DNA from: Clostridia bacterium
GTDB lineage: Bacteria > Bacillota > Clostridia > Oscillospirales > QAKW01
DNA length: 64,000 nt
Reading direction: 5' to 3'
Assembly (NCBI GenBank): GCA_017436525.1
Contig: JAFSCX010000047.1
Location: 53,198-117,197, forward strand
Positions 6,357 through 62,150 of this stretch are shown one piece after another. The translations under genes and the position numbers were made by a program. The notes beneath the pieces were generated by a model. The model was not told the DNA's origin, made no database searches, and worked only from the letters and a program-made list of their open reading frames with translations. Within the stretch, counting starts at the first letter, position 1, and every line of letters begins with the position of its first letter.

Positions 6357-7241
6357 ATGAAGCTGAAAGATCTCTTAAATAGCGAAGACCTCACACTTTC
6401 TTTCGAAGTATTCCCGCCCAAAACCGACAGCAATTTTGAGAGTGTGCGCTATGCGACCGAGGAAATTGCCGCATTAAAGCCCGCCTTTATGAGTGTAACC
6501 TATGGTGCGGGAGGCGGCACCAGCAAATATACATTGGAAATTGCAAAAAACATTAAAGCCCGCCATGGTGTTGAGACCCTTGCCCATCTCACCTGCGTCT
6601 CCTCTACCAAAGAAACGGTATCGCAGAAGATCCAAGAGATCCGTGAATCGGGTATTGAAAATGTAATGGCATTGCGCGGAGATCTCACGCCCGAACTCCA
6701 AAATACCGATCGCGCGCAATGGCACTATCAGCACGCAGTAGATCTGATTTATGATCTGAAAGCGCAAGCACCGGAGCTTTGCATCGGTGGTGCTTGCTAC
6801 CCCGAAATCCATCCCGAGAGTGCCAATCAAAAAGAAGATATTCGATATCTCAAAGAGAAAGTGGATGCCGGATGCGATTTTCTTACTACGCAAATGTTTT
6901 TTGATAATAATCTGCTTTATAATTTTTTATATAAAATTCGAGAAGCAGGTATTACCGTCCCCATCATCCCCGGCATCATGCCGATTACCAATGCCAACCA
7001 ATTAGATCGCGCCCTTCACCTTTCCGGCTCATTCATTCCTCAGCGCTTCAAGAGCTTGGTTGATAAATTCGGCTCCTCTCCCGACTCCATGAAGCAAGCC
7101 GGCATTGCTTATGCAACCGATCAGATCATTGATCTTTATGCCAATGGCATTACCAATGTACATGTCTATTCCATGAACAAGCCGGATATTGCCGCAAGTA
7201 TTCAAAATAATCTCTCTGCAATTATTAAAAAACATGAATGA
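6357..7241 (+). CDS. metF: 5,10-methylenetetrahydrofolate reductase
   Basis: 294 aa with MetF-type motifs SFEVFPPKT, VTYGAGG, HLTC and ALRGD. Confidence 0.9.
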   Translation: MKLKDLLNSEDLTLSFEVFPPKTDSNFESVRYATEEIAALKPAFMSVTYGAGGGTSKYTLEIAKNIKARHGVETLAHLTCVSSTKETVSQKIQEIRESGIENVMALRGDLTPELQNTDRAQWHYQHAVDLIYDLKAQAPELCIGGACYPEIHPESANQKEDIRYLKEKVDAGCDFLTTQMFFDNNLLYNFLYKIREAGITVPIIPGIMPITNANQLDRALHLSGSFIPQRFKSLVDKFGSSPDSMKQAGIAYATDQIIDLYANGITNVHVYSMNKPDIAASIQNNLSAIIKKHE

Positions 7242-18932: not shown

Positions 18933-19454
18933 TTATTTCTTTGGCTCAAACGGAGCAGCGCTCTCTGCCATCTTGAAAATATCTGCCCTTGTTACAGAGG
19001 CAGGGCTATATTCTATCACACAACTTATCTCCGGCGAAATTGTCCAACAACGGAAGGCGCGGTCATCTTTTTCAAACCACGCACCAACCATCTCTCCGAC
19101 AGTACAATTTTCGTATTCGTCCGGCAAAGTAACCACAGATTCAATGGACGCAATATGCAGACCTATTACCTCTGCAGAATCGGATTCATAGTATTTCGTA
19201 TGGCATTGTGTGAATATAATGGTGTTACCGTTTGCGTCACTGTATGTCAGAGGTGAGGTGATAATCTCAACCTGTTTCTTGTAGCTGTCATCCACTGAGA
19301 GGATAGCCTACTCCTCGCGATCTGCCATCTCTCGCATTTTTTCAGCATCGGATTTATCGTTACCTGCGGAGTCTTTAGTCGCTGCGAATGAAACCAATGC
19401 AACAATCACGGCTAAAGCACAACACAGGATGGTCAACAATTTCTTTTTGCTCAT
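18933..19454 (-). pseudogene. Secreted/membrane-anchored protein ORF interrupted by one in-frame TAG
   Basis: ATG 19454-19452 (RBS GGAGGG) encodes MSKKKLLTILCCALAVIVALVSFAATKDSAGNDKSDAEKMREMADREE, then TAG (19310-19308). The same frame continues as AILSV-DDSYKKQVEII into the 120-aa track ORF (18933-19295). Confidence 0.45.
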
Positions 19455-19774
19455 GGATATCCCTCCGGTATAAAAACACCCACCGAACCGTTTTGTGCGG
19501 AGTGGGTTATTCTAATGACTCCGCTATCTTTCAAAAACAGTCCGGTTGAACTGCAACAGCCTCACTCTACAAAGGATGTGAATGTACCTTCTCAAAAGAC
19601 GGATGCCCAAAATTGTTATGTGTATAGAGGTCATTTGGGGAATATTTATAGGTTTATTTCCGATATTTTTTGTATTATATCATATATAAACCAATATTGC
19701 AACAACTTTACCGCCTTACAACCAATAATATTGCCGCCTGTATGGGTTAAAATATAATAAAGGGTGGTGAGATT

Positions 19775-20086
19775 ATGGACGAAAAAGATTTTGCTTTGCG
19801 ATTAGCACAACTGCGTGAAAAGAAGAATGTATCCGCACGAGAAATGAGTCTGGCAATCGGACAAAACGCAGGATATATTAACAATATCGAATCCGGGAAA
19901 TCGTTGCCGTCTTTACCTGGTGTTTTCTATATATGTGATTATTTAGGTATTTCTGTAGGCGAGTTCTTTGATCTCGAAGCCAAGAACCCCACCAAATTGG
20001 ATGCAATCATCAAGGATTTGAAAAAACTTGATGATCAACAGTTAGATAACATTGCAAATTTGATAAAAGGTTTAATTAAGAAATAA
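19775..20086 (+). CDS. XRE-family helix-turn-helix transcriptional regulator
   Basis: 103 aa with the LAQLREKKNVSAREMSLAIGQNAGYINNIESGK HTH_3 pattern. A TATAAT-type -10 lies upstream. Confidence 0.85.
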   Translation: MDEKDFALRLAQLREKKNVSAREMSLAIGQNAGYINNIESGKSLPSLPGVFYICDYLGISVGEFFDLEAKNPTKLDAIIKDLKKLDDQQLDNIANLIKGLIKK

Positions 20087-20095
20087 ACTATAAGT

Positions 20096-20123
20096 AAAGC
20101 CGCCCGAGTGGGCGGCTTTTATT
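20096..20123. terminator. Bidirectional terminator between convergent genes
   Basis: AAGCCGCCC-gagt-GGGCGGCTT with flanking A and T runs. Confidence 0.8.
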
Positions 20124-20130
20124 AATGATC

Positions 20131-21033
20131 TTAATATATTTTTGTAATGAGATATTCTTCACACTCAACAAACGCATCATCAATTGCGCGAATACCGTAA
20201 AGTTCTCCTTGATTTTTAGTTTGAACAATATCAAAGGTAACGTCCATACTCCACCAAGAACCATCAAAGTAAACTCGATTCCAAGTGTGGTGATATCGAG
20301 TGTTATCACGCTTATCACCATCGATAACATAGCAATGAATGTTCTGACTCCGACATAGTGCGGCAAACAGATGAGAAAAGTCATAACAGATTCCTTTTCG
20401 CGTGCTTAAGGTTTTACGAACATTGAAATACTGTATTAGAGGTTCGCAGTCATAGTCATACTCAAAATTATGTATCATCCATTCGTATATTGCTTTTGCT
20501 TTTTCTTCATCGGTATCATAATCGGAGCAAATTTCATCAGCAAGTTCTACAGTGTTTGTATCCCACAGCGTTGCTTGACCGTTTGTAAGAGAAACATCAA
20601 CCTGTCTGTAGACAAAAATATATGCTGAGAAAAGTAATACGATTATAAGAATTGATAATATTAAAACATATATTTTCGTCAGCGGTTTATCTTTACCCAT
20701 ATTATCGGCGAAAGCGATAAAATACATAAAAACGATAGCAAGTGGAATAAGTGCCAAAAACGGAAATACTCTGCGACAATAAATCGCATAAGCAATGTTC
20801 ATACAAGCAATGAGTATCAGCAAGATATAAACCACTGCTCTCATTGTTTTTGAGTTTATTTTAACCATTAAAAATAAAGTTGGTAAGACTGATAGCAGAT
20901 AGAATACCTGTAGAATGGGAGAGAGTACAAGGAAGTCTTTTAGGTATAATCCAAGTAACAGATTATATGTAAGTGCAATGGTAAATAAAATAAGTCTTGT
21001 TATATTAGTTTTAGGTGCTTTTGTAGTCTTCAT
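20131..21033 (-). CDS. Transglutaminase-like (Cys protease fold) membrane protein
   Basis: 300 aa with about 5 N-terminal TM helices. The C-terminal core reads GICYDFSHLFAALCRSQNIHCYVIDG ... HHTWNRVYFDGSWWSMDVT (Cys-His-Asp transglutaminase-core pattern). The gene is AT-rich compared with its neighbours. Confidence 0.7.
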   Translation of the reverse strand: MKTTKAPKTNITRLILFTIALTYNLLLGLYLKDFLVLSPILQVFYLLSVLPTLFLMVKINSKTMRAVVYILLILIACMNIAYAIYCRRVFPFLALIPLAIVFMYFIAFADNMGKDKPLTKIYVLILSILIIVLLFSAYIFVYRQVDVSLTNGQATLWDTNTVELADEICSDYDTDEEKAKAIYEWMIHNFEYDYDCEPLIQYFNVRKTLSTRKGICYDFSHLFAALCRSQNIHCYVIDGDKRDNTRYHHTWNRVYFDGSWWSMDVTFDIVQTKNQGELYGIRAIDDAFVECEEYLITKIY

Positions 21034-21138
21034 TTCAAAATCTCCTTTTGTGTACGAATTTATTGAAACGAAGAAGTAGCAGTACGGAACAAAACACTCT
21101 GTACTGCCACAAACAAAGGATTATTTAACATCTTTTAA

Positions 21139-21187
21139 GAAAACAACAAACCCGAACGTTTCACCAATCGGTAAAAGGTTCGGGTTT
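21139..21187 (-). terminator. Terminator downstream of tRNA-Leu(CAG)
   Basis: 10-bp stem AAACCCGAAC ... GTTCGGGTTT, followed on the minus strand by TTTGTTGTTTT. Confidence 0.5.
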
Positions 21188-21195
21188 GAATGCTT

Positions 21196-21282
21196 TGGTG
21201 CGGATAAGAGGACTTGAACCTCCACCGAGTTGCCCCGACTAGAACCTGAATCTAGCGCGTCTGCCAATTCCGCCATATCCGC
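21196..21282 (-). tRNA. tRNA-Leu (anticodon CAG), type II with long variable arm, CCA encoded
   Basis: Sense strand reads GCGGATATGGCGGAATTGGCAGACGCG-CTAGA-TTCAGGT-TCTAG ... GGTTCAAGTCC ... TATCCGCACCA. Confidence 0.9.
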
Positions 21283-21354
21283 ATATGACCATTGCCTTTT
21301 GACAACGCTAATATATTAGCAAAAGCAAAGGAAAAAGTCAATAGGTTTTTGAAA

Positions 21355-21741
21355 TTATTTTTCAAGTTTTTGATAAGTTTTTTCCTTGAAGGGCTTGGAA
21401 TATACAATAAAGCGATCATGTTCTCCTTTACCGATCAAGCCACTCTCATCCCAAGCCTCCAATGTAAAATGCAAAGACCGCCCTTCTGCTTTCTTAAGAA
21501 CGATTTTACATACCACCTCCATACCGATTGGTGTAGCAGACAAATGCTGCACATCAATATGGGTCCCAACAGTGGTCGTGCCCTCTTCCAGCAATCCCGC
21601 CACACTTTCGGCTGCGCAACCTTCCATGAGCGCAATCATTGCGGGGGTGGCAAATACAGGAAGATCACCGCTTCCCATGCTCTGGGCAGTAAGTTCTTTG
21701 GTTACGATACATTTCTTTTCATTAGTCAATCCAATATTCAT
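21355..21741 (-). CDS. Hotdog-fold thioesterase family protein
   Basis: 128 aa; MNIGLTNEKKCIVTKELTAQSMGSGDLPVFATPAMIALME ... resembles the small thioesterase superfamily (fluoroacetyl-CoA thioesterase-like) proteins. Confidence 0.65.
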   Translation of the reverse strand: MNIGLTNEKKCIVTKELTAQSMGSGDLPVFATPAMIALMEGCAAESVAGLLEEGTTTVGTHIDVQHLSATPIGMEVVCKIVLKKAEGRSLHFTLEAWDESGLIGKGEHDRFIVYSKPFKEKTYQKLEK

Positions 21742-21886
21742 ACTCTTCTCCTTTATTATTTTTTAATCGCGACACTTGTGGAGATTTTTCTTATAAGTTG
21801 CAAATATGGTATATGAAAGCGATCTCATTATAACATAAAAAAGAGAAATATGATATAAATAAATTGCCAAGATGCAAAAATTTTAT

Positions 21887-22090
21887 TGGTGCGAAAGACG
21901 GGACAGGCGCATCTGGCGCCTTCCTGCTCGATGACCGCTCCGCATTGCTCGCGGTGCCCATCTCGCACCATCCGTCTATAAAACAGCCGCACCGGGATGT
22001 TTTATTTTACGACGGCCGCCCCCCTTGGGGTTCAAGTCCCTTTCAATTTTGACGCAATAAAAAAGACACCCGACTGGGTGTCTTTTTTAT
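21887..22090. repeat. Copy 1 of a ~204-bp direct repeat built around tRNA-Leu(GAG) 3'-end fragments
   Basis: The first 18 nt (TGGTGCGAAAGACGGGAC) equal positions 24084-24101 of the tRNA-Leu(GAG) gene. It also holds an inverted 10-mer TCTCGCACCA (21961-21970) and a T-arm-like GGGGTTCAAGTCCC (22027-22040) in the opposite orientation. It ends with the palindromic terminator GACACCC-gact-GGGTGTC flanked by A6/T6. Confidence 0.9.
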
Positions 22091-22097
22091 TGGTGCG

Positions 22098-23880
22098 GGT
22101 GTTCATAAGGGATTTACTTAGAAATAAGTACGAACGGTATTTATAATCTTAAACTTGTTAGTACTATTTATAGACCAAAAACGATACGTTTTTGCCTCTG
22201 TGGGATATCAAAATGGTATATACATTAAATGTTTTTAATATAGTTCGCCATAGAAATCCACGCACATGCTTCTGCATTGTTGGCTGCTATTTGTGACCAT
22301 TGTGTTGTGCTTAATGTATTATTTGCAATTTCCTGTGTATTTTGTGAAATTTTCTCAGTATTATGTTCTATCGATGAAAGTCTACCCAATATCTCTTGAT
22401 TTTGAGTAATAATGCTCTTGTTTTGAGCAATTTGAATAGCTTGATTGATTATAATTTTCTGTTGATTCTTAATTATGTTATCCAGTTTTTCCTTGATCTC
22501 ATCAAGATCTAAATGTACTAAGATTTCTGAAAGTGATTCAGTAGAAGAATCAAAATAATCACATATATACCAGATAGATTCTAAGTTTCTAAATTTATTT
22601 GGAATGATGTTAAGGTCATATTGCTTTTTTAGAAGTTCTGAAGCTTTTGTCAAATCATCTTCAATTTCAGTAAGTTGTTTCGGACATTGTTCTAAATTGT
22701 TTTGAGCTGATTCATAATCTTTAGAAAGCTCAACTTTTGCTGTTTGTAATAAATCCAAAAAAATCGGTCGCCAATCTGCAGCAAAAGAAGCTTGACCTGA
22801 ATAATATTCTTCTCCGGTATAATTCCAAAGATTTACAGGAATTTTTTTAGTTTTTCCGAACCATGTTGTTTCTTCTCTTGTGACAGGCTCTGAAAGTTGT
22901 TGTAATCTTTCTTCAGTGAGCTTATGTTCGTTTTTAAAATCAATTGGTGGATAATATTGTACCCATTCTTCATCGATAATACGTTGTTGTTTAGATTGTA
23001 TGTAAAAATAAAAATCCGTTCCGTCAAAGCCAAAATTAAACATTATTTCATTATCAACACCCTTATATCTTTTTTCGTAGGGCAATCCATAACTATGATC
23101 CCAAAAATAAGTTTTTGAATAACATCTGATTGTTTTACTATTTTCAATTAGCTTTTCTACCTCTTCTTTTTTCACTTGCAAAGCATTTTTTATAAACTCA
23201 AGGCGACAAATGTCATTGAAATATATACTCATTCCGTTGCGCTCATCGTTAGTTAGTCTCCTAGTTGACTTTTGTTCAATTGTATTATCGCTTTTAACTT
23301 TGAAACCACAGTTAGAGCAATATATTGAATTATCTGTTATATGAGTTCCACATTGTGAGCAAAACATAATTATAACCTCCTAAAAATATTATTATGCAAA
23401 CTATTCGCTACAAAAAAAATAAATGTATTATTAATTTAATTACAACTCCTTTCCGCAAAATAAAAAAGTGTGAGCAACCGAAGCCACCCACACCGAAAAA
23501 TGCAAACCCCGATTGCTGCTACACAAAACCAGATAAATGGGAATGGCAAACATTACACACTATCTGTTGGAATTTGCATTTTTACCAAATTCAAAAATAG
23601 TGTGCACAAAAAAGGATATAGCATCCCCGTAAAAATGAAAATACCATTTCCCAAAATCTTTATTCGGTTTTGTGTAGCATAATTAGTTTATCATAAATTT
23701 GAATGTTTTTCAATAGTTTTCAGCAATTATATTGTCTGTGAGTTTAGCGAGCATCGGATTTTGACACCAAAATCCAAACACACCGAAAAGAACAAGCCTT
23801 TCTCGAAAAAGAGAAAGGCTTGTTGCTATAATGATAAAAATCGAGTGTCCATAACTCAAATCCGTTATGAACACTCGATA
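22098..23880. mobile_element. Candidate 1.78-kb insertion bounded by imperfect terminal inverted repeats and 7-bp direct repeat TGGTGCG
   Basis: Left end is GTGTTCATAAGGGATTT (22099-22115). The right end reverse-complements to GTGTTCATAACGGATTT (23858-23874), a 16/17 match. TGGTGCG occurs at 22091-22097 and 23881-23887. Removing the segment would join the two 204-bp units into a perfect tandem. The segment is AT-rich, and I see no transposase or integrase. Confidence 0.4.
22225..23367 (-). CDS. Zinc-ribbon domain protein with long C-terminal coiled coil, function unknown
   Basis: 380 aa with an AGGAGG RBS and an N-terminal zinc ribbon, CSQCGTHITDNSIYCSNCG. The C-terminal ~130 aa are heptad-like and Q/N/I-rich (IIKNQQKIIINQAIQIAQNKSIITQNQEIL...). 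Confidence 0.65.
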   Translation of the reverse strand: MFCSQCGTHITDNSIYCSNCGFKVKSDNTIEQKSTRRLTNDERNGMSIYFNDICRLEFIKNALQVKKEEVEKLIENSKTIRCYSKTYFWDHSYGLPYEKRYKGVDNEIMFNFGFDGTDFYFYIQSKQQRIIDEEWVQYYPPIDFKNEHKLTEERLQQLSEPVTREETTWFGKTKKIPVNLWNYTGEEYYSGQASFAADWRPIFLDLLQTAKVELSKDYESAQNNLEQCPKQLTEIEDDLTKASELLKKQYDLNIIPNKFRNLESIWYICDYFDSSTESLSEILVHLDLDEIKEKLDNIIKNQQKIIINQAIQIAQNKSIITQNQEILGRLSSIEHNTEKISQNTQEIANNTLSTTQWSQIAANNAEACAWISMANYIKNI

Positions 23881-24083
23881 TGGTGCGAAAGACGAGACAG
23901 GCGCATCTGGCGCCTTCCTGCTCGATGACCGCTCCGCATTGCTCGCGGTTCCCATCTCGCACCATCCGTCTATAAAACAGCCGCACCGGGCTGTTTTATT
24001 TTACGACGGCTGCCCCCTTGGGGTTCAAGTCCCTTTCAATTTTGACGCAATAAAAAAGACACCCGACTGGGTGTCTTTTTTAT
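23881..24083. repeat. Copy 2 of the ~204-bp tRNA-fragment repeat, abutting the intact tRNA-Leu(GAG)
   Basis: Differs from copy 1 by 4 substitutions and a 1-nt indel (about 97.5% identity by my alignment). It has the same internal architecture as copy 1. Confidence 0.9.
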
Positions 24084-24168
24084 TGGTGCGAAAGACGGGA
24101 CTTGAACCCGTACGGTGTAAACCACACGCCCCTCAAACGTGCGCGTCTGCCAGTTCCGCCACTCTCGC
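24084..24168 (-). tRNA. tRNA-Leu (anticodon GAG), type II, CCA encoded
   Basis: Sense strand reads GCGAGAGTGGCGGAACTGGCAGACGCG-CACGT-TTGAGGG-GCGTG ... GGGTTCAAGTCCCGTCTTTCGCACCA. Confidence 0.9.
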
Positions 24169-24261
24169 GTAAAGTACTTATAGATTATAGCAATCAAAAT
24201 CCAAAAAGTCAATACCAAATTTCAAAAAAACACCTTGAAATAACAAGTTTTTTTTGATATC

Positions 24262-25575
24262 ATGTTGACATCAAGCGCAAAGGCGGAATATAAGAACGTG
24301 AGAGTTGCTTTTTACACCCTTGGGTGCAAAGTTAATCAATATGATACACAGATCATGCGAGATCAATTGGAGCAAAACGGATATGAAACAGTTCCCTTTG
24401 AGCAGGATGCAGATGTATACATCATTAACACCTGCACCGTTACCCAAATCTCCGATAAAAAATCCCGCCAGATGATCTCCCGTGCCAAAAGAAACCACCC
24501 CAAAAGCATCATCATTGTATGCGGTTGTTTCTCTCAGGTTGCCCCTTCTGCGGCGGCTTCAATTGAGGGAGTCGACATTGTGATCGGCACCTCAAATCGA
24601 AAAGAAATCCTCCGCTATATCAATGAATTTCAAGTAAACCAAAAGCAAATTATCGAAGTAGATAATTGCGGCACTTTAGAAAAAGAAGAAATCCATTCAT
24701 TTGGCGATAAAAACCGCGCCATATTAAAAATTGAAGACGGTTGCGAAAACTATTGCAGCTATTGCCTGATTCCATATGCAAGAGGCAGAATTCGATCAAA
24801 GCCCCTTGAGATCATTCAAAAAGAGATCCGCGCTTTAGTAAAGGCAGGATATCGTGAGATTGTTCTGACAGGAATTCACCTTGGTTCCTATGGAAAAGAA
24901 AACGGCACTCCCTGCCTTGAGAAAGCAATTACGGCTGCTGCTGAAATACCGGGAGTTGAAAGAATTCGTCTGGGTTCTTTGGAGCCGAGAATTATCACCC
25001 CTCAATTTTTGGAATCGATCGCTTCTGTTCGTGCTTTATGCCCTCATTTTCATCTTTCCCTGCAAAGCGGATGTGATCGCACCCTCAGGCGTATGAATCG
25101 GCATTATTCCGCAAATGATTATGAGCAAGCGGTAGAGCTCCTGCGCGAAACTTATCCGGATTGCTCCATCACTACGGATATCATTGTAGGCTTCCCGGGA
25201 GAAACCGAAGAAGATTTCAACGATAGCCTCTCATTTGCTAAAAGAATCGGCTTTGCAAAAATTCATATCTTCCCCTACTCTCCTCGCAAAGGTACGCGCG
25301 CAGCCGCTATGGATGGGCAACTGACAAAAGAGATAAAGGCAAAGCGGGTAAAAGAGATGGAAAAAATTGAGCAATCCTCTCGCCATGCCTTTTGGAGCAA
25401 GATGGTTGGAACGATTCAGGAAGTACTTCCGGAAGAAGAAAAGAACGAGAATCTTCATGGCTTTACAAAAAATTACTGCCCTGTATTATGGAAAGGGAAA
25501 AAGCCTTCTGCTCCCATCCCGCTGAAAATTATCGACTATACCGACGAAGGGCTGATTGGCGAGCAAATCAAATAA
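24262..25575 (+). CDS. mtaB: Radical SAM methylthiotransferase, MtaB-like (tRNA ms2t6A)
   Basis: 437 aa with an MTTase N-domain (YTLGCKVNQYD), a radical SAM CSYCLIPYARG motif and a C-terminal TRAM-like domain. Confidence 0.8.
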   Translation: MLTSSAKAEYKNVRVAFYTLGCKVNQYDTQIMRDQLEQNGYETVPFEQDADVYIINTCTVTQISDKKSRQMISRAKRNHPKSIIIVCGCFSQVAPSAAASIEGVDIVIGTSNRKEILRYINEFQVNQKQIIEVDNCGTLEKEEIHSFGDKNRAILKIEDGCENYCSYCLIPYARGRIRSKPLEIIQKEIRALVKAGYREIVLTGIHLGSYGKENGTPCLEKAITAAAEIPGVERIRLGSLEPRIITPQFLESIASVRALCPHFHLSLQSGCDRTLRRMNRHYSANDYEQAVELLRETYPDCSITTDIIVGFPGETEEDFNDSLSFAKRIGFAKIHIFPYSPRKGTRAAAMDGQLTKEIKAKRVKEMEKIEQSSRHAFWSKMVGTIQEVLPEEEKNENLHGFTKNYCPVLWKGKKPSAPIPLKIIDYTDEGLIGEQIK

Positions 25576-25577
25576 AG

Positions 25578-25612
25578 AACTCCTGCAGTTTGAAGCTGCA
25601 GGAGTTTCATTT
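25578..25612. terminator. Bidirectional terminator
   Basis: AACTCCTGCAG-tttgaag-CTGCAGGAGTT. Confidence 0.8.
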
Positions 25613-26315
25613 ATATTTTACGAATAATTCCCATAGGAGTCTGCTGACCGCTTTGGCCCAAAGGATTATCCTTAAGAATTTTGGCATAGAGCTCGCGGCT
25701 CATGGATTCATCTGAAACACCGAGAATCACGCCATCAATATCGTTGATATCCACCACGCAAACATCAAAGCCGATTCTCGCTTTTATATCGCGGGATACT
25801 TTATCGGGATCCTTGGGCCCCAAGACAACATAATGGTTATAAGGCGGAATGGTGCAATCGCAAGGCCCATCAATAGAGCGTGCCTTAGCACCTGCAATAT
25901 TATAAAAAACACCGCGCTTGCCGACCATCTTTCCGAGAGCTGAGCAAAAAGCGGCAAAGAGGATCTTCAAAGTGCCGCACTCCTGCAGGGCCATCTCCAT
26001 GGTTTGAGGAATGCTCAAGCCGATTCCATAGGGAGATTTATATACAAATTTACAAAGGAATTTTGCTAAGGGGCGTGGATGAATCTCTTCCATGGGGATT
26101 GCCCGCTTTTGGGTGCAAGCAACGCACTTTTCGGAAATAAAGAGAACATCCCCTTCCTCCATCATTCCCTTTGCATATTGCTCCGCCACATCCTCAATTT
26201 TATCTTGATCGGTAATTACATGGGTCTTAATCGGCAGACGGCGATAGGATACGCCCTCAACCTCAATTATTTCATTTTTTCCTTCATTGGGTTTTAATTC
26301 AGCCATTTTCAACAT
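25611..26315 (-). CDS. CofE-like (F420-0:gamma-glutamyl ligase family) protein
   Basis: 234 aa. IKTHVITDQDKIEDV ... GDVLFISEKCVACTQKRA ... VVDINDIDG resembles the CofE/FbiB N-domain fold family. No other F420 genes are in the window. Confidence 0.55.
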   Translation of the reverse strand: MLKMAELKPNEGKNEIIEVEGVSYRRLPIKTHVITDQDKIEDVAEQYAKGMMEEGDVLFISEKCVACTQKRAIPMEEIHPRPLAKFLCKFVYKSPYGIGLSIPQTMEMALQECGTLKILFAAFCSALGKMVGKRGVFYNIAGAKARSIDGPCDCTIPPYNHYVVLGPKDPDKVSRDIKARIGFDVCVVDINDIDGVILGVSDESMSRELYAKILKDNPLGQSGQQTPMGIIRKI

Positions 26316-26323
26316 CCTCCTAA

Positions 26324-26869
26324 TTACTTAAAGAATAAAGGCAACGGTGCTAAGGTAATAATATCATCGCGCTCGATCGCATCCCCTTCTGCAAGGATCG
26401 CCATTTTAGCCACGATCTCACCGCCGGCCTTTTCTACCAATGTCTCAAGCGCTTTTAGGGATTCACCGGTGGATATTACATCATCTACAATGACAACACG
26501 CTTCCCACGCATCAATTCAACATCCTCTCCATCAATACAGAGGATCTGCTTATTAACCGTAGTGATAGAATCCACCTCGACAGTAAAAACGTCTTTCATG
26601 TAAAGCTTTGGAGCTTTACGGGCAAGAACATAGCGATTTACACCGCTTTGCCGCGCGATCTCATGAATCAGAGGAATCCCCTTGGATTCTGCAGTGATAA
26701 TCACATCATGGGGCGGCATCTTTTCGATCAATTCTTTAGCGCAGGCAACGGTCAACTCTACATCGCCGAAAATTACAAACGCCGCAATATCCAAATGCTC
26801 ATTAACCGGGCAGATTGGCAGATCTCGCTCAAGACCTGCAACCTTTAACTTATAAGTATTCATCGCCAT
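26324..26869 (-). CDS. Phosphoribosyltransferase (purine PRT-like)
   Basis: 181 aa with the PRPP-binding loop VVIVDDVISTGES. Confidence 0.75.
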   Translation of the reverse strand: MAMNTYKLKVAGLERDLPICPVNEHLDIAAFVIFGDVELTVACAKELIEKMPPHDVIITAESKGIPLIHEIARQSGVNRYVLARKAPKLYMKDVFTVEVDSITTVNKQILCIDGEDVELMRGKRVVIVDDVISTGESLKALETLVEKAGGEIVAKMAILAEGDAIERDDIITLAPLPLFFK

Positions 26870-26876
26870 TCCTCCT

Positions 26877-27218
26877 TCAGCACATTTTCACATCCAACTG
26901 CTCGCCGCCGATCAGATGGAAATGCAAATGAAAAACCGATTGACCGCCGAATTCGTTGCAATTGCTTACAACGCGAAAACCTTGCTCCAGCTTTAGTTCT
27001 TTAGCAAGATACGCAATCACTTCAAATATATGTGCAACAATTCCACTATTTTCCTCGTTAATTTCCATCACATTGGCAATATGCTTTTTAGGGATCACCA
27101 ATACATGAACCTTTGCCGCAGGGCTGAGATCATGAAAAGCAATCACTTGATCATCTTCATAGACCTTATTGGAAGGGATTTCCCCGCTTGCGATCTTGCA
27201 AAAAATACAGTCCTTCAT
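26877..27218 (-). CDS. HIT-family (histidine triad) nucleotide hydrolase/transferase
   Basis: 113 aa with CIFCKI and the histidine triad HLHFHLIGG. Confidence 0.85.
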   Translation of the reverse strand: MKDCIFCKIASGEIPSNKVYEDDQVIAFHDLSPAAKVHVLVIPKKHIANVMEINEENSGIVAHIFEVIAYLAKELKLEQGFRVVSNCNEFGGQSVFHLHFHLIGGEQLDVKMC

Positions 27219-39552: not shown

Positions 39553-39835
39553 TAAAAAAGCCCCGAGGCCAAAAAGCCTCAGGGACGAAAATGCATTTCG
39601 CGGTACCACCCTGTTTATCTTCGCTAAAAGAAGATCACTCGTCGGACTTCCATCAAAGTCCCAGCCCGTAACGGGGGCAACCGTGCTCCATTACAGCCGC
39701 TAATATACGGTTTCACAGAGCCGACTCAGGAAGGAGACTGCACCATCTTTCGCACCGATTCACACCAACCATCGGCTCTCTGAAGCGTCCAAAAGGAGCA
39801 GATTTTCCGTCAACATCTTTGGTTTATGAAAGAAT
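39553..39835 (-). promoter_or_regulatory. T-box leader, specifier read as CUC (Leu), with terminator
   Basis: On the minus strand the promoter is TTGACA-17-TTAAAT. The K-turn is GAU-GUU-GA-C-GGAA / UUCC-U-GA-GUC, followed by an AGAGA box and a distal loop GGTTGGTGTGA. The specifier loop is U-CUC-C (CUC = rc of 39734-39736) and the T-box is AACAGGGTGGTACCGCGAAAT. The terminator is CCCTGAGGC ... GCCTCGGGG + T6 (39553-39584). Confidence 0.75.
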
Positions 39836-39924: not shown

Positions 39925-40196
39925 AAAAAGTGTTAGAAATGGCTAAGACGAAGACGGCAAGGTTCATCGGATCTTCAGAGAATCGACGGTTGGTGCAAGT
40001 CGATGATCGGTAACCAATTTGCCCATCACTTCCGAGCCGGTGAGCCGAGTGATTATCACCAGGCTTTCCCGTTTGCCCGCGTTAAGGGATAGGGATTATT
40101 GGATCCTGAAGCGATGGTATGATTACCATAATTTGAGTGGTACCGCGGGTATTGATTTTGCTCGTCTCAAGAGTTTTCTTGAGGCGATTTTTTATT
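39925..40196 (+). promoter_or_regulatory. T-box leader, specifier read as AUC (Ile), with terminator
   Basis: The promoter is TTGACA (39892-39897)-17-TAAAGT (39915-39920). The K-turn is GGC-UAA-GA-C-GAAG / CUUC-C-GA-GCC. AGAGA lies at 39977-39981 and the distal loop GGTTGGTGCAA at 39988-39998. The specifier loop is C-AUC-A (AUC at 40025-40027) and the T-box TTGAGTGGTACCGCGGG at about 40133-40149. The terminator is CGTCTCAAG ... CTTGAGGCG + T-run (40163-40196). Confidence 0.8.
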
Positions 40197-61869: not shown

Positions 61870-62150
61870 CATCCTTTCAATATAAAAGCCCTCTGCTCCC
61901 CAATCGGGAGCAGAGGGCAAAAATTCTTTTGCGGTACCACCTCTGCGGCAAATACTTCTCACAAAGTATTCCTCAGCGCGTTCCTTATCAACGCCGCCCT
62001 GCTAACGGAAGGCTTCCGCTGCCGCCTACTCTTCCTTCGGGGCAGATGCTCCGGGATGTATTCGCAAAGCACCTTCTTCTCCGCCTTACACCAGCCGGCG
62101 GCTCTCTTTGCAAGAAAAATGCTGCTACTTGTTCCCTTCTCAGCTTGAAT
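61870..62150 (-). promoter_or_regulatory. T-box leader upstream of tyrS, specifier UAC (Tyr)
   Basis: On the minus strand the promoter is TTGACA-17-TAAAAT, followed by an AGAGA box and a distal loop GGCTGGTGTAA. The specifier context is GAA-UAC-A-UCCC and the T-box is GAGGTGGTACCGCAAAAG. Confidence 0.8.

Follow-up and report, generated by a model that had tools for sequence, protein, structure and literature searches.

Since the 1970s, 178-bp repeats have been known from the tyrT operon of Escherichia coli, each of which ends in 19 nt of tRNA-Tyr, and both their origin and their role are still unsettled. Their description is said to go back to Egan and Landy in 1978, Rossi et al. in 1981 and Bosl and Kersten in 1991. 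The present work deals with a comparable arrangement, namely two direct repeats of about 204 bp, hereafter unit 1 and unit 2, lying behind the tRNA-Leu(GAG) gene in a stretch of 64,000 nucleotides from a gut bacterium of the Clostridia (GenBank assembly GCA_017436525.1, contig JAFSCX010000047.1, positions 53,198 to 117,197), the whole of which is called the window. With a probability of roughly one half, these repeats constitute a tandem tRNA-trailer element similar to the E. coli repeats, i.e., the RtT of Rfam, which probably acts as a folded single strand, RNA being favoured, and which was duplicated by unequal crossing-over. As far as Rfam 15 and the literature searched can tell, RtT-like tRNA-linked repeats were known from one enterobacterial operon, and the clostridial family to which the two units belong appears to be newly recognised.

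In E. coli, where the tyrT locus was examined on NC_000913.3, the RtT units each end in AATCCTTCCCCCACCACCA and hold GGGGAAGGAT-GA-GAACCTTCGA, i.e., the reverse complement of the tRNA T-arm and inner acceptor with two mismatches. In the Rfam RtT model (RF00391), which has a gathering threshold of 45 bits and scores 133-137 bits on four E. coli units, those two segments pair as the closing helix, P1, and 8 nt are left as a tail that ends in CCA. The annotated small RNA RttR spans exactly one unit, ends at the CCA and is annotated in the direction of the tRNA; how it acts is not yet known, according to a mobilome-sequencing preprint (10.1101/2024.07.17.603846).

The clostridial array is read on the minus strand and, from the tRNA promoter onwards, consists of the following features:

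24184-24212, minus strand: promoter-like site of tRNA-Leu(GAG), sigma-70-type (TTGACT, 17-nt spacer, TATAAT, upstream TG), with 11 of 12 consensus matches
24084-24168, minus strand: intact tRNA-Leu(GAG) gene with encoded CCA (ARAGORN; Rfam tRNA model, 45.9 bits)
23881-24083, minus strand: unit 2, the tRNA-proximal RtT-like repeat, 203 nt (repeat finder and pairwise alignment)
24085-24048, minus-strand order: terminator of unit 2
24037-24020, minus-strand order: inverted tRNA copy of unit 2
24009-23966, minus-strand order: P-stem and conserved hairpin of unit 2
23963-23918, minus-strand order: GNNG/CNNC-ACC/GGU domain of unit 2
23915-23899, minus-strand order: variable hairpin of unit 2
23898-23881, minus-strand order: direct copy of the tRNA 3' end in unit 2, with one mismatch
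22098-23880, minus strand: insertion element of 1.78 kb, bounded by terminal inverted repeats (TIRs), flanked by TGGTGCG and splitting the array
21887-22090, minus strand: unit 1, the distal RtT-like repeat, 204 nt (repeat finder and pairwise alignment)
22092-22055, minus-strand order: terminator of unit 1
22044-22027, minus-strand order: inverted tRNA copy of unit 1
22003-21980, minus-strand order: hairpin of unit 1, with one U-C mismatch in the stem
21969-21924, minus-strand order: structured domain of unit 1
21921-21905, minus-strand order: variable hairpin of unit 1
21904-21887, minus-strand order: perfect 18-nt direct copy of the tRNA 3' end in unit 1
21881-21886, minus strand: AATAAA (minus-strand reading), the 6 nt past unit 1, a repeat of the unit start that lengthens the junction repeat to TTTTATTGGTGCG

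Five of 204 positions differ between the two units in the pairwise alignment, namely four substitutions and one indel (97.5% identity), the repeat finder placing the direct copies at 21887-22097 and 23881-24090, and excision of 22098-23880 leaves unit, unit and tRNA-Leu(GAG) in tandem; both the degree of identity and the perfect tandem without the 1.8-kb insert had been given in a preliminary description of this DNA and hold good. The last 18 nt of tRNA-Leu(GAG), GTCCCGTCTTTCGCACCA, for which 0.03 matches are expected from shuffles, occur at three minus-strand sites in the 64 kb, i.e., in the tRNA (24084-24101), in unit 2 (23881-23898, with one mismatch) and in unit 1 (21887-21904), as had been proposed for the units, in the orientation of the gene. 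A T-arm-like segment in the opposite orientation was likewise recovered in both units, as GGGGTTCAAGTCCC on the plus strand (22027-22040 and 24020-24033). Two hairpins recur as first described, AGGCGC/GCGCCT at 21905-21921 and 23899-23915, and AAAACAGCC/GGCTGTTTT at 21980-22003 and 23974-23997, the substitution said to alter the second stem being a G/T difference that makes it weaker in unit 1; each unit is closed, again as described, by a palindromic terminator of 17 bp (22055-22092 and 24048-24085). The motif TTTTATTGGTGCG marks every unit junction, the outermost included, with exactly three sites in the 64 kb (21881, 22085 and 24078); in the shuffle control, three matches with at most one mismatch were reached in one of 100 shuffles. 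As for the ends of the units, the repeat finder returned neither TIR nor target-site duplication (TSD).

The inverted copy of the window units corresponds to positions ~7-26 of tRNA-Leu(GAG) counting from the CCA end and pairs with the direct copy (GAAAGGGACTTGAACCCC versus GTC(C/T)CGTCTTTC), by which the fold is closed and a short single-stranded tail ending in ...CACCA is left. The preliminary description had also seen the terminal 10 nt of the tRNA in inverted orientation. The corresponding TCTCGCACCA is present on the plus strand and agrees with the tRNA end at 9 of 10 positions, but it represents mostly the GGUGCG motif of the family, which is conserved also behind tRNAs for Arg, Trp and Thr, so that its being complementary to the Leu acceptor end is for the most part coincidence. 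For the same motif, a tRNA-like acceptor stem made of GGUGCGAGA and UCUUUCGCACC was dropped as a general feature, GGUGCG pairing with the 3' end for some tRNAs only.

The site at 24184-24212 is the sole strong promoter-like site upstream of the array on the minus strand, and none was found inside the window units on either strand. Lacking a promoter of their own, the units are trailers to the tRNA gene and not independent genes, a point on which the earlier wording of a tRNA-mimicking structured RNA gene family needs amending; the remainder of that wording fared better, the family being large, its fold supported by covariation, and the resident tRNA being the source of the closing helix and the 3' tail of that fold.

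No RNA family matched the units in an Rfam cmscan search of positions 21000-25000 with E-values up to 10, in keeping with the earlier remark that no match to transfer-messenger RNA (tmRNA) or to the signal recognition particle (SRP), 6S or RNase P RNAs could be made by eye. RF00391 itself gave no match there, so that the units lie below its gathering threshold, nor did it match the tRNA-Tyr-linked clostridial unit at locus L021 at E-values up to 1. ARAGORN reported only the five true tRNAs, the units being recognised neither as tRNA nor as tmRNA, and no tRNA, tmRNA or T-box model of Rfam matched them, though three genuine T-boxes elsewhere in the window were detected. A T-box relationship was rejected: GGGUACCGCGAG is T-box-like, but there is no T-box match, and the motif is kept in units of all tRNA types.

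The likeness to the E. coli system lies in the design. In both, (i) the units are directly downstream of a tRNA gene and on the same strand, (ii) they are in tandem and measure ~170-200 nt, (iii) each ends in a direct copy of the last 18-19 nt of the tRNA including CCA, and (iv) the direct copy is base-paired to an inverted copy of T-arm and inner acceptor, in a helix that closes a multi-helix fold with a short ...CCA tail. On the other hand, the clostridial units place an intrinsic terminator immediately behind the tRNA or the preceding unit, where E. coli has none, and their core helices and near-invariant hairpin are unlike those of E. coli. The clostridial family also serves many tRNAs, whereas all four RF00391 matches examined belong to the E. 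coli tRNA-Tyr operon and the consensus of the model ends in tRNA-Tyr 3' sequence.

Beyond the window, in Clostridia of Oscillospirales type from gut and rumen, family members were found behind no fewer than 15 tRNA isoacceptors, and a unit behind tRNA-Arg (L013) aligns over its full length with the window units. Its most conserved block is the near-invariant hairpin AAAACAG(Y)CCGGTG(N)G(R)CTGTTTT, the pattern of which occurs, among the matches listed, in 20 IMG/VR contigs and more than 120 genome contigs; the hosts among these matches are mostly Ruminococcus, Acutalibacteraceae, Oscillospiraceae and other metagenome-assembled genomes (MAGs) of Clostridia, with a few records annotated to other phyla. 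Carriers available in culture include Ruminococcus sp. JE7B6 (L055), Ruminococcus sp. FC2018 and XPD3002 (L079, L090), Anaerotruncus massiliensis AT3 (L119) and Eubacterium sp. OM08-24 (L106). A 22-mer from a unit gave no match in IMG/VR. A first class, linked to tRNA genes, comprises 27 distinct units with the tRNA on the locus, again among the matches listed, and the tRNAs concerned are those for Leu (gag, caa), Arg (acg, cct, ccg), Tyr, Glu, Ala (cgc, ggc), Trp, Ser (gga, cga), Pro, Gln and Gly, plus Thr. Units are 136-284 nt long and have the same parts, namely a terminator hairpin immediately behind the CCA, the inverted copy of their own tRNA (~nt 9-26 from its 3' end), the conserved hairpin within a covarying stem, a right part that varies, and the direct copy, whose start lies 18-19 nt from the CCA end in 14 of the 27 units, just past T-loop position 58. 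Tandem arrays are found at other loci too (e.g., L023, L029, L035 and L084). The family is absent from Rfam 15, and literature searches by exact hairpin sequence and by keyword, covering an open-access subset in which catalogues of structured RNAs (e.g., PMC8040213) were not compared motif by motif, returned no clostridial family. Further RtT-like families probably exist.

A second class consists of dispersed multi-hairpin intergenic elements with the same hairpin and immediate flanks and no tRNA context. Such elements (L041, L046, L050, L058, L072, L074, L123, L138, L156 and others) measure ~170-200 nt, have 5-6 hairpins in the arrangement ...GGGGTGAAT-hairpin-AGAGGGGA... and lie between housekeeping genes; they have no Rfam entry, and each genome holds several of them, with compensatory differences between copies. 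One locus without a tRNA nearby (L152) holds a tandem array built on the same hairpin with a period of ~85-92 nt, and at another (L155, ~7050-7200) a minimal hairpin module of 55-60 nt apparently lies, by eye, within an IS630-type transposase-like frame. Behind tRNA-Ser(gct) (L055, L158) and tRNA-Phe (L092), a direct copy of the tRNA 3' end was seen 150-200 nt downstream without the exact hairpin, accompanied by an inverted copy of 15-19 nt in two of these three cases. An IMG/VR contig (L021) also bears, at 316-365 on its minus strand and a few hundred nt downstream of the tRNA-Tyr unit array, a strong match to RF02440 (SpF59 / ldcC RNA) of 65.9 bits.

Either strand of a unit folds about 6 standard deviations better than its shuffles (z about -6). 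Covariation was assessed in 16 members of the window's subfamily, which stand behind tRNAs with about ten different 3' ends: in a seven-helix structure, 89.3% of cells are paired versus 78.7% with shuffled partners, a value reached by none of 500 shuffles, and pairing falls to 34-52% in slid-partner controls. Changes on both sides were counted in 20 of 35 pairs, one core helix reading GGCG/CGCC, GACG/CGUC, GAUG/CAUC or GGCU/AGCC across members, and RNAalifold recovers, with covariation, the long-range helix between inverted and direct copy. The core helices are kept through compensatory changes. On the tRNA-sense strand, which is purine-rich, G.U pairs outnumber A.C (14 versus 5), other mismatches are mainly G.G, G.A and A.G, and the fold is better than that of the complement in 20 of 26 units, by 3.9 kcal/mol on average; this pattern favours a single-stranded function with tRNA-sense polarity.

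The locus is moreover polymorphic. The window arrangement is also present in assemblies from several ruminant-gut samples (L003-L006), in one of which (L006, 1400-1660) unit 1 is a mosaic with the unit-2 state at three of the five positions that distinguish the window units, which suggests gene conversion or recombination between copies. In a species with an MtaB protein 74% identical (L165), the same tRNA-Leu(GAG) 3' end is followed by the terminator and a thioesterase promoter only, i.e., the site is empty; in another with MtaB 75% identical (L164), the terminator, the inverted T-arm copy and a window-type hairpin are there and the right-hand part is missing. Unit copy number thus varies between related species. 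The terminators of the window, the empty and the partial locus look homologous (CACCCA-NNN-GGGTG), so the structured body lies beyond the native terminator. In the very genome whose Leu site is empty, a unit with the window's rare hairpin variant stands elsewhere (L094); its core is 81% identical to that of the window (86% without the variable hairpin), and its inverted and direct segments match another tRNA, ending in CTCCGCCA. One core lineage therefore sits behind different tRNAs, its tRNA-derived parts having been exchanged. Short-read contigs of the window's own species (L001 and L002, MtaB 100% identical) end at the array, 120-121 nt upstream of mtaB, and so do those of the closest other species (L161 and L163, MtaB 91% identical); a further contig (L162) ends 35 nt upstream of it. 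The repeats appear to break assemblies at the tRNA/unit array.

Taken as a tRNA trailer, a unit would work as a folded single strand with the polarity of the tRNA, most likely as RNA produced by read-through from the tRNA-Leu(GAG) promoter. The enzymes of tRNA 3' maturation may trim this RNA at its tRNA-like ...CCA end, by analogy with E. coli RttR, to give a product of ~150-200 nt ending in CGCACCA and displaying a copy of the tRNA 3' strand. In function, it would most likely belong among decoys, sensors or competitors for factors that recognise the 3' end of uncharged tRNA. One unit would have become two by unequal crossing-over or slippage between the junction repeats of 18-25 nt, and an element bounded by TIRs and targeting ...CGCACCA would later have inserted at the pseudo-3' end of unit 2.

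Several observations weigh against this interpretation. A strong intrinsic terminator stands between the tRNA and the structured part in every unit, so that co-transcription requires read-through, and the units lack an internal promoter-like site, for which some family members have no room. The resemblance to E. coli may be one of analogy and not of homology, since the units lack any RF00391 match and the RtT profile run with nhmmer --max against 27 clostridial units gave a best E-value of 0.36, the reverse search giving nothing. Covariation alone cannot separate RNA from folded single-stranded DNA, and the excess of G.U over A.C is modest (p ~0.06, the sequences being related). Lastly, the exchange of tRNA parts around the L094 core shows mobility or retargeting, which a simple trailer RNA leaves unexplained. 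Given the terminator, the missing promoter and the exchange of tRNA parts, a mobile module acting at the DNA level stays a serious rival.

According to this rival, the units are small non-autonomous mobile DNA modules whose tRNA copies fold in single-stranded DNA and mimic the duplex of the tRNA gene, and a recombinase encoded elsewhere would insert, excise and stack them behind tRNA genes; it is possible, if on the unlikely side. It would readily account for related species having or lacking the unit with the tRNA unchanged, for a related core with matched segments at a different tRNA while the tRNA-Leu(GAG) site of the same genome is empty, for tandem units each bounded by a core-like 18-nt repeat, and for every unit bringing its own terminator and no promoter. 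Likewise in its favour, the hairpin is found in dispersed elements between genes as well and, at L155, apparently within a gene, in the manner of repetitive extragenic palindromic (REP) sequences or miniature inverted-repeat transposable elements (MITEs), and tRNA 3' ends are real insertion hot spots here. In E. coli, exonuclease-resistant coverage over tyrT-rttR is reported to be raised under stress (10.1101/2024.07.17.603846), which would also suit it. However, no recombinase is associated with the units: with an iterated integrase profile, tyrosine integrases were found to adjoin them at only 7 of ~160 loci (the related L023 group, L027 and L055), on which ground a general integrase linkage was rejected. 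At L023, the end of a prophage (repressor, ImmA, integrase) is followed by a displaced tRNA fragment, two units and host genes (sigma factor, kinase); as the far side holds host genes, the units are host DNA next to the displaced fragment, and the idea that they are carried by the phage beside attP was discarded. A crude motif scan of low sensitivity showed no HUH/Y1-like open reading frame (ORF) among the 2144 ORFs of the loci, nor is a recombinase-like ORF found among those annotated at 19000-27000 of the window, where no reverse transcriptase ORF is found either. The homologous-looking terminators further put the body beyond the native terminator and not at a crossover inside the tRNA, and G.U pairs, tandem G.A mismatches and a purine-rich sense strand are more typical of RNA.

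Known folded or accreting DNA elements offer partial models for such a module. Integron attC sites and the attP(+) site of CTX phage are folded single-strand recombination sites. In the units, too, an inverse core and a core, with 100-150 nt between them, can form a hairpin that copies the target duplex, and arrays keep one core at each junction, as attC arrays do. Unlike attC cassettes, the units have no ORF cassette or conserved ORF, what lies between the copies is a conserved multi-helix structure and not a variable loop, and no IntI/Xer-type recombinase occurs in the loci examined, trans-acting ones elsewhere in the genomes not having been searched; attC-like motifs of single-stranded DNA have been discussed (PMC5737381). 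With REP/REPIN sequences and MITEs, the family shares a palindromic hairpin of 23 nt with conserved flanks in many dispersed intergenic elements; tRNA-linked units differ in having neither TIR nor TSD, no RAYT/Y1 transposase was seen in the motif scan already mentioned, and unit copies diverge by compensatory changes and not by random decay. Cis-mobilisable elements (CIMEs), known from streptococcal work alongside integrative and conjugative elements (ICEs), are non-autonomous, flanked by att sites and accrete in tandem at tRNA genes. The window units resemble them in being bounded by short direct repeats of the tRNA 3' end and stacked in tandem beside an intact tRNA, where other mobile elements gather; CIMEs are kilobases long and remnants of integrase elements, whereas a window unit is 200 bp with a structured core and no linked integrase, and its body lies beyond what looks like a native terminator.

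A broader proposal, put forward tentatively and rather unlikely as it stands, is that the clostridial units and E. coli RtT reflect one general process, in which a structured module behind a tRNA has its antisense and sense segments rewritten to match; it would be either a tRNA-templated retargetable element, as mobile DNA or self-propagating RNA, or an RNA that senses the cognate tRNA, its specificity being set by these two segments.

The preliminary description had given equal room to fossil attL/attR sites, scars of repeated integration into the 3' end of tRNA-Leu(GAG), which are here understood as remnants of integrase-bearing elements now decayed. The 18-nt repeats do look like att cores, being identical to the tRNA 3' end and starting in the T-loop like many of them, the locus is an insertion hot spot, and a real integrase element with 49-nt tRNA repeats is present at the related locus L017. 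This explanation has nevertheless become improbable, for independent decay would not leave the same covarying core of ~130 nt behind more than 15 tRNAs, no integrase remnant is found in or near the units, which at the abutting prophage lie on the host side, copies 97.5% identical fit duplication rather than two integrations, and the identity block spans no more than 2 nt of the T-loop, not enough to serve as a crossover region there.

Even less can be said for the opposite strand as the functional one, the plus-strand unit then being the template of a tRNA-primed reverse-transcribed element with an 18-nt start complementary to the tRNA-Leu 3' end and a sense T-arm. The boundary of the 18-19-nt copy just past T-loop position 58 in about half of the units matches the geometry of retroviral primer-binding sites, the same 18-nt stretch of the tRNA 3' end being copied as in retroviruses and long terminal repeat (LTR) elements, and the plus strand folds well too. 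But neither a reverse transcriptase nearby, nor an LTR-like organisation, nor a promoter on the plus strand was found; on that strand mismatches turn pyrimidine-pyrimidine, G.U turns into A.C and the fold is weaker in 20 of 26 units, the polarity evidence favouring the tRNA-sense strand, and the E. coli analogue is annotated as transcribed in tRNA direction. This makes a tRNA-primed element very improbable.

Finally, a neutral origin of the units, as a duplicated tRNA spacer or a decayed pseudogene of a tRNA that has neither function nor mobility, is hardly credible. Tandem duplication between short repeats is common and the locus is polymorphic, but compensatory changes in at least five helices, a near-invariant 23-nt hairpin in matches annotated to several phyla, and the same design behind many tRNAs, each matched to its own, all contradict such an origin. 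A role of the unit as 5' leader of the next gene was rejected as well, 9 of 26 downstream genes being convergent.

The element that splits the array (22098-23880) is a subject of its own. It is flanked by TGGTGCG at both ends, its TIRs are imperfect and 18-20 bp long (GGTGTTCATAAGGGATTT and AAATCCGTTATGAACACTCG, at 22098-22115 and 23858-23877), and it contains one annotated gene:

22225-23367, minus strand: ORF of 380 amino acids, with an N-terminal zinc ribbon, a beta-rich middle domain and long C-terminal helices (Pfam Zn_Ribbon_1 only)

This ORF has 49 homologues, mostly in Clostridia, and its PHROG matches are confined to the zinc ribbon. PADLOC gave no match, and the AlphaFold2 model (mean pLDDT 71), for which Foldseek returned no match in the PDB with an E-value below 0.001, shows no recognisable transposase fold. 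An element 80% identical and with the same TIRs stands directly after the CCA of tRNA-Leu(TAA) in GCA_054267775.1 (L010, 5537-7222), and one 86% identical immediately behind the pseudo-3' end of a further Leu-type unit (L178, 50-1770). In these three independent insertions the left junction reads ...GCACCA-TA(T/G)(T/C)-GAGT..., with CGCACCA after the right end; falling directly after ...GCACCA each time, the element is mobile and specific for tRNA-Leu-type ...GCACCA ends, and in the window it used the end copy of unit 2, not the tRNA itself. Upstream of the ORF, a non-coding leader of ~510 nt is conserved between the three element copies, and a small RNA of ~200 nt could be encoded there. Within the leader (23460-23880, minus strand), promoter-like sites were noted at 23859-23831 and 23713-23685, and terminator-like hairpins at 23879-23840, 23824-23791 and 23494-23467. 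Distant homologues of the ORF (48% identity) adjoin tRNA-Arg(ACG) at L013 and L017, beside a window-type unit and an integrase-Rep element. The latter (L017, 1575-5532) is a 3.9-kb integrative element between perfect 49-nt repeats of the 3' half of tRNA-Arg(ACG), with genes for a tyrosine integrase, an HTH_17 protein, a Viral_Rep/helicase protein and an S24 repressor, and it adjoins a gene pair of helix-turn-helix (HTH) and zinc-ribbon type.

Elsewhere in the window, the three T-box leaders above the Rfam gathering score are at 39578-39822 (minus strand), 39936-40172 (plus strand) and 61910-62150 (minus strand), two of them back to back and divergent.

That a larger, independent family with the RtT design exists behind at least 15 tRNA isoacceptors means the design is no accident of one locus, and its hundreds of natural variants, including related cores on different tRNAs, open it to comparative testing. 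In the genomes themselves, the units appear to break metagenome assemblies at tRNA loci and offer decoy ...CCA ends where other mobile elements land. If they are DNA elements, they would represent a new kind of miniature tRNA-targeting module; if they are RNAs, they would form an unannotated class of tRNA-end mimics, which could interact with aminoacyl-tRNA synthetases, RelA or the ribosome, 3'-processing enzymes or CCA-reading toxins.

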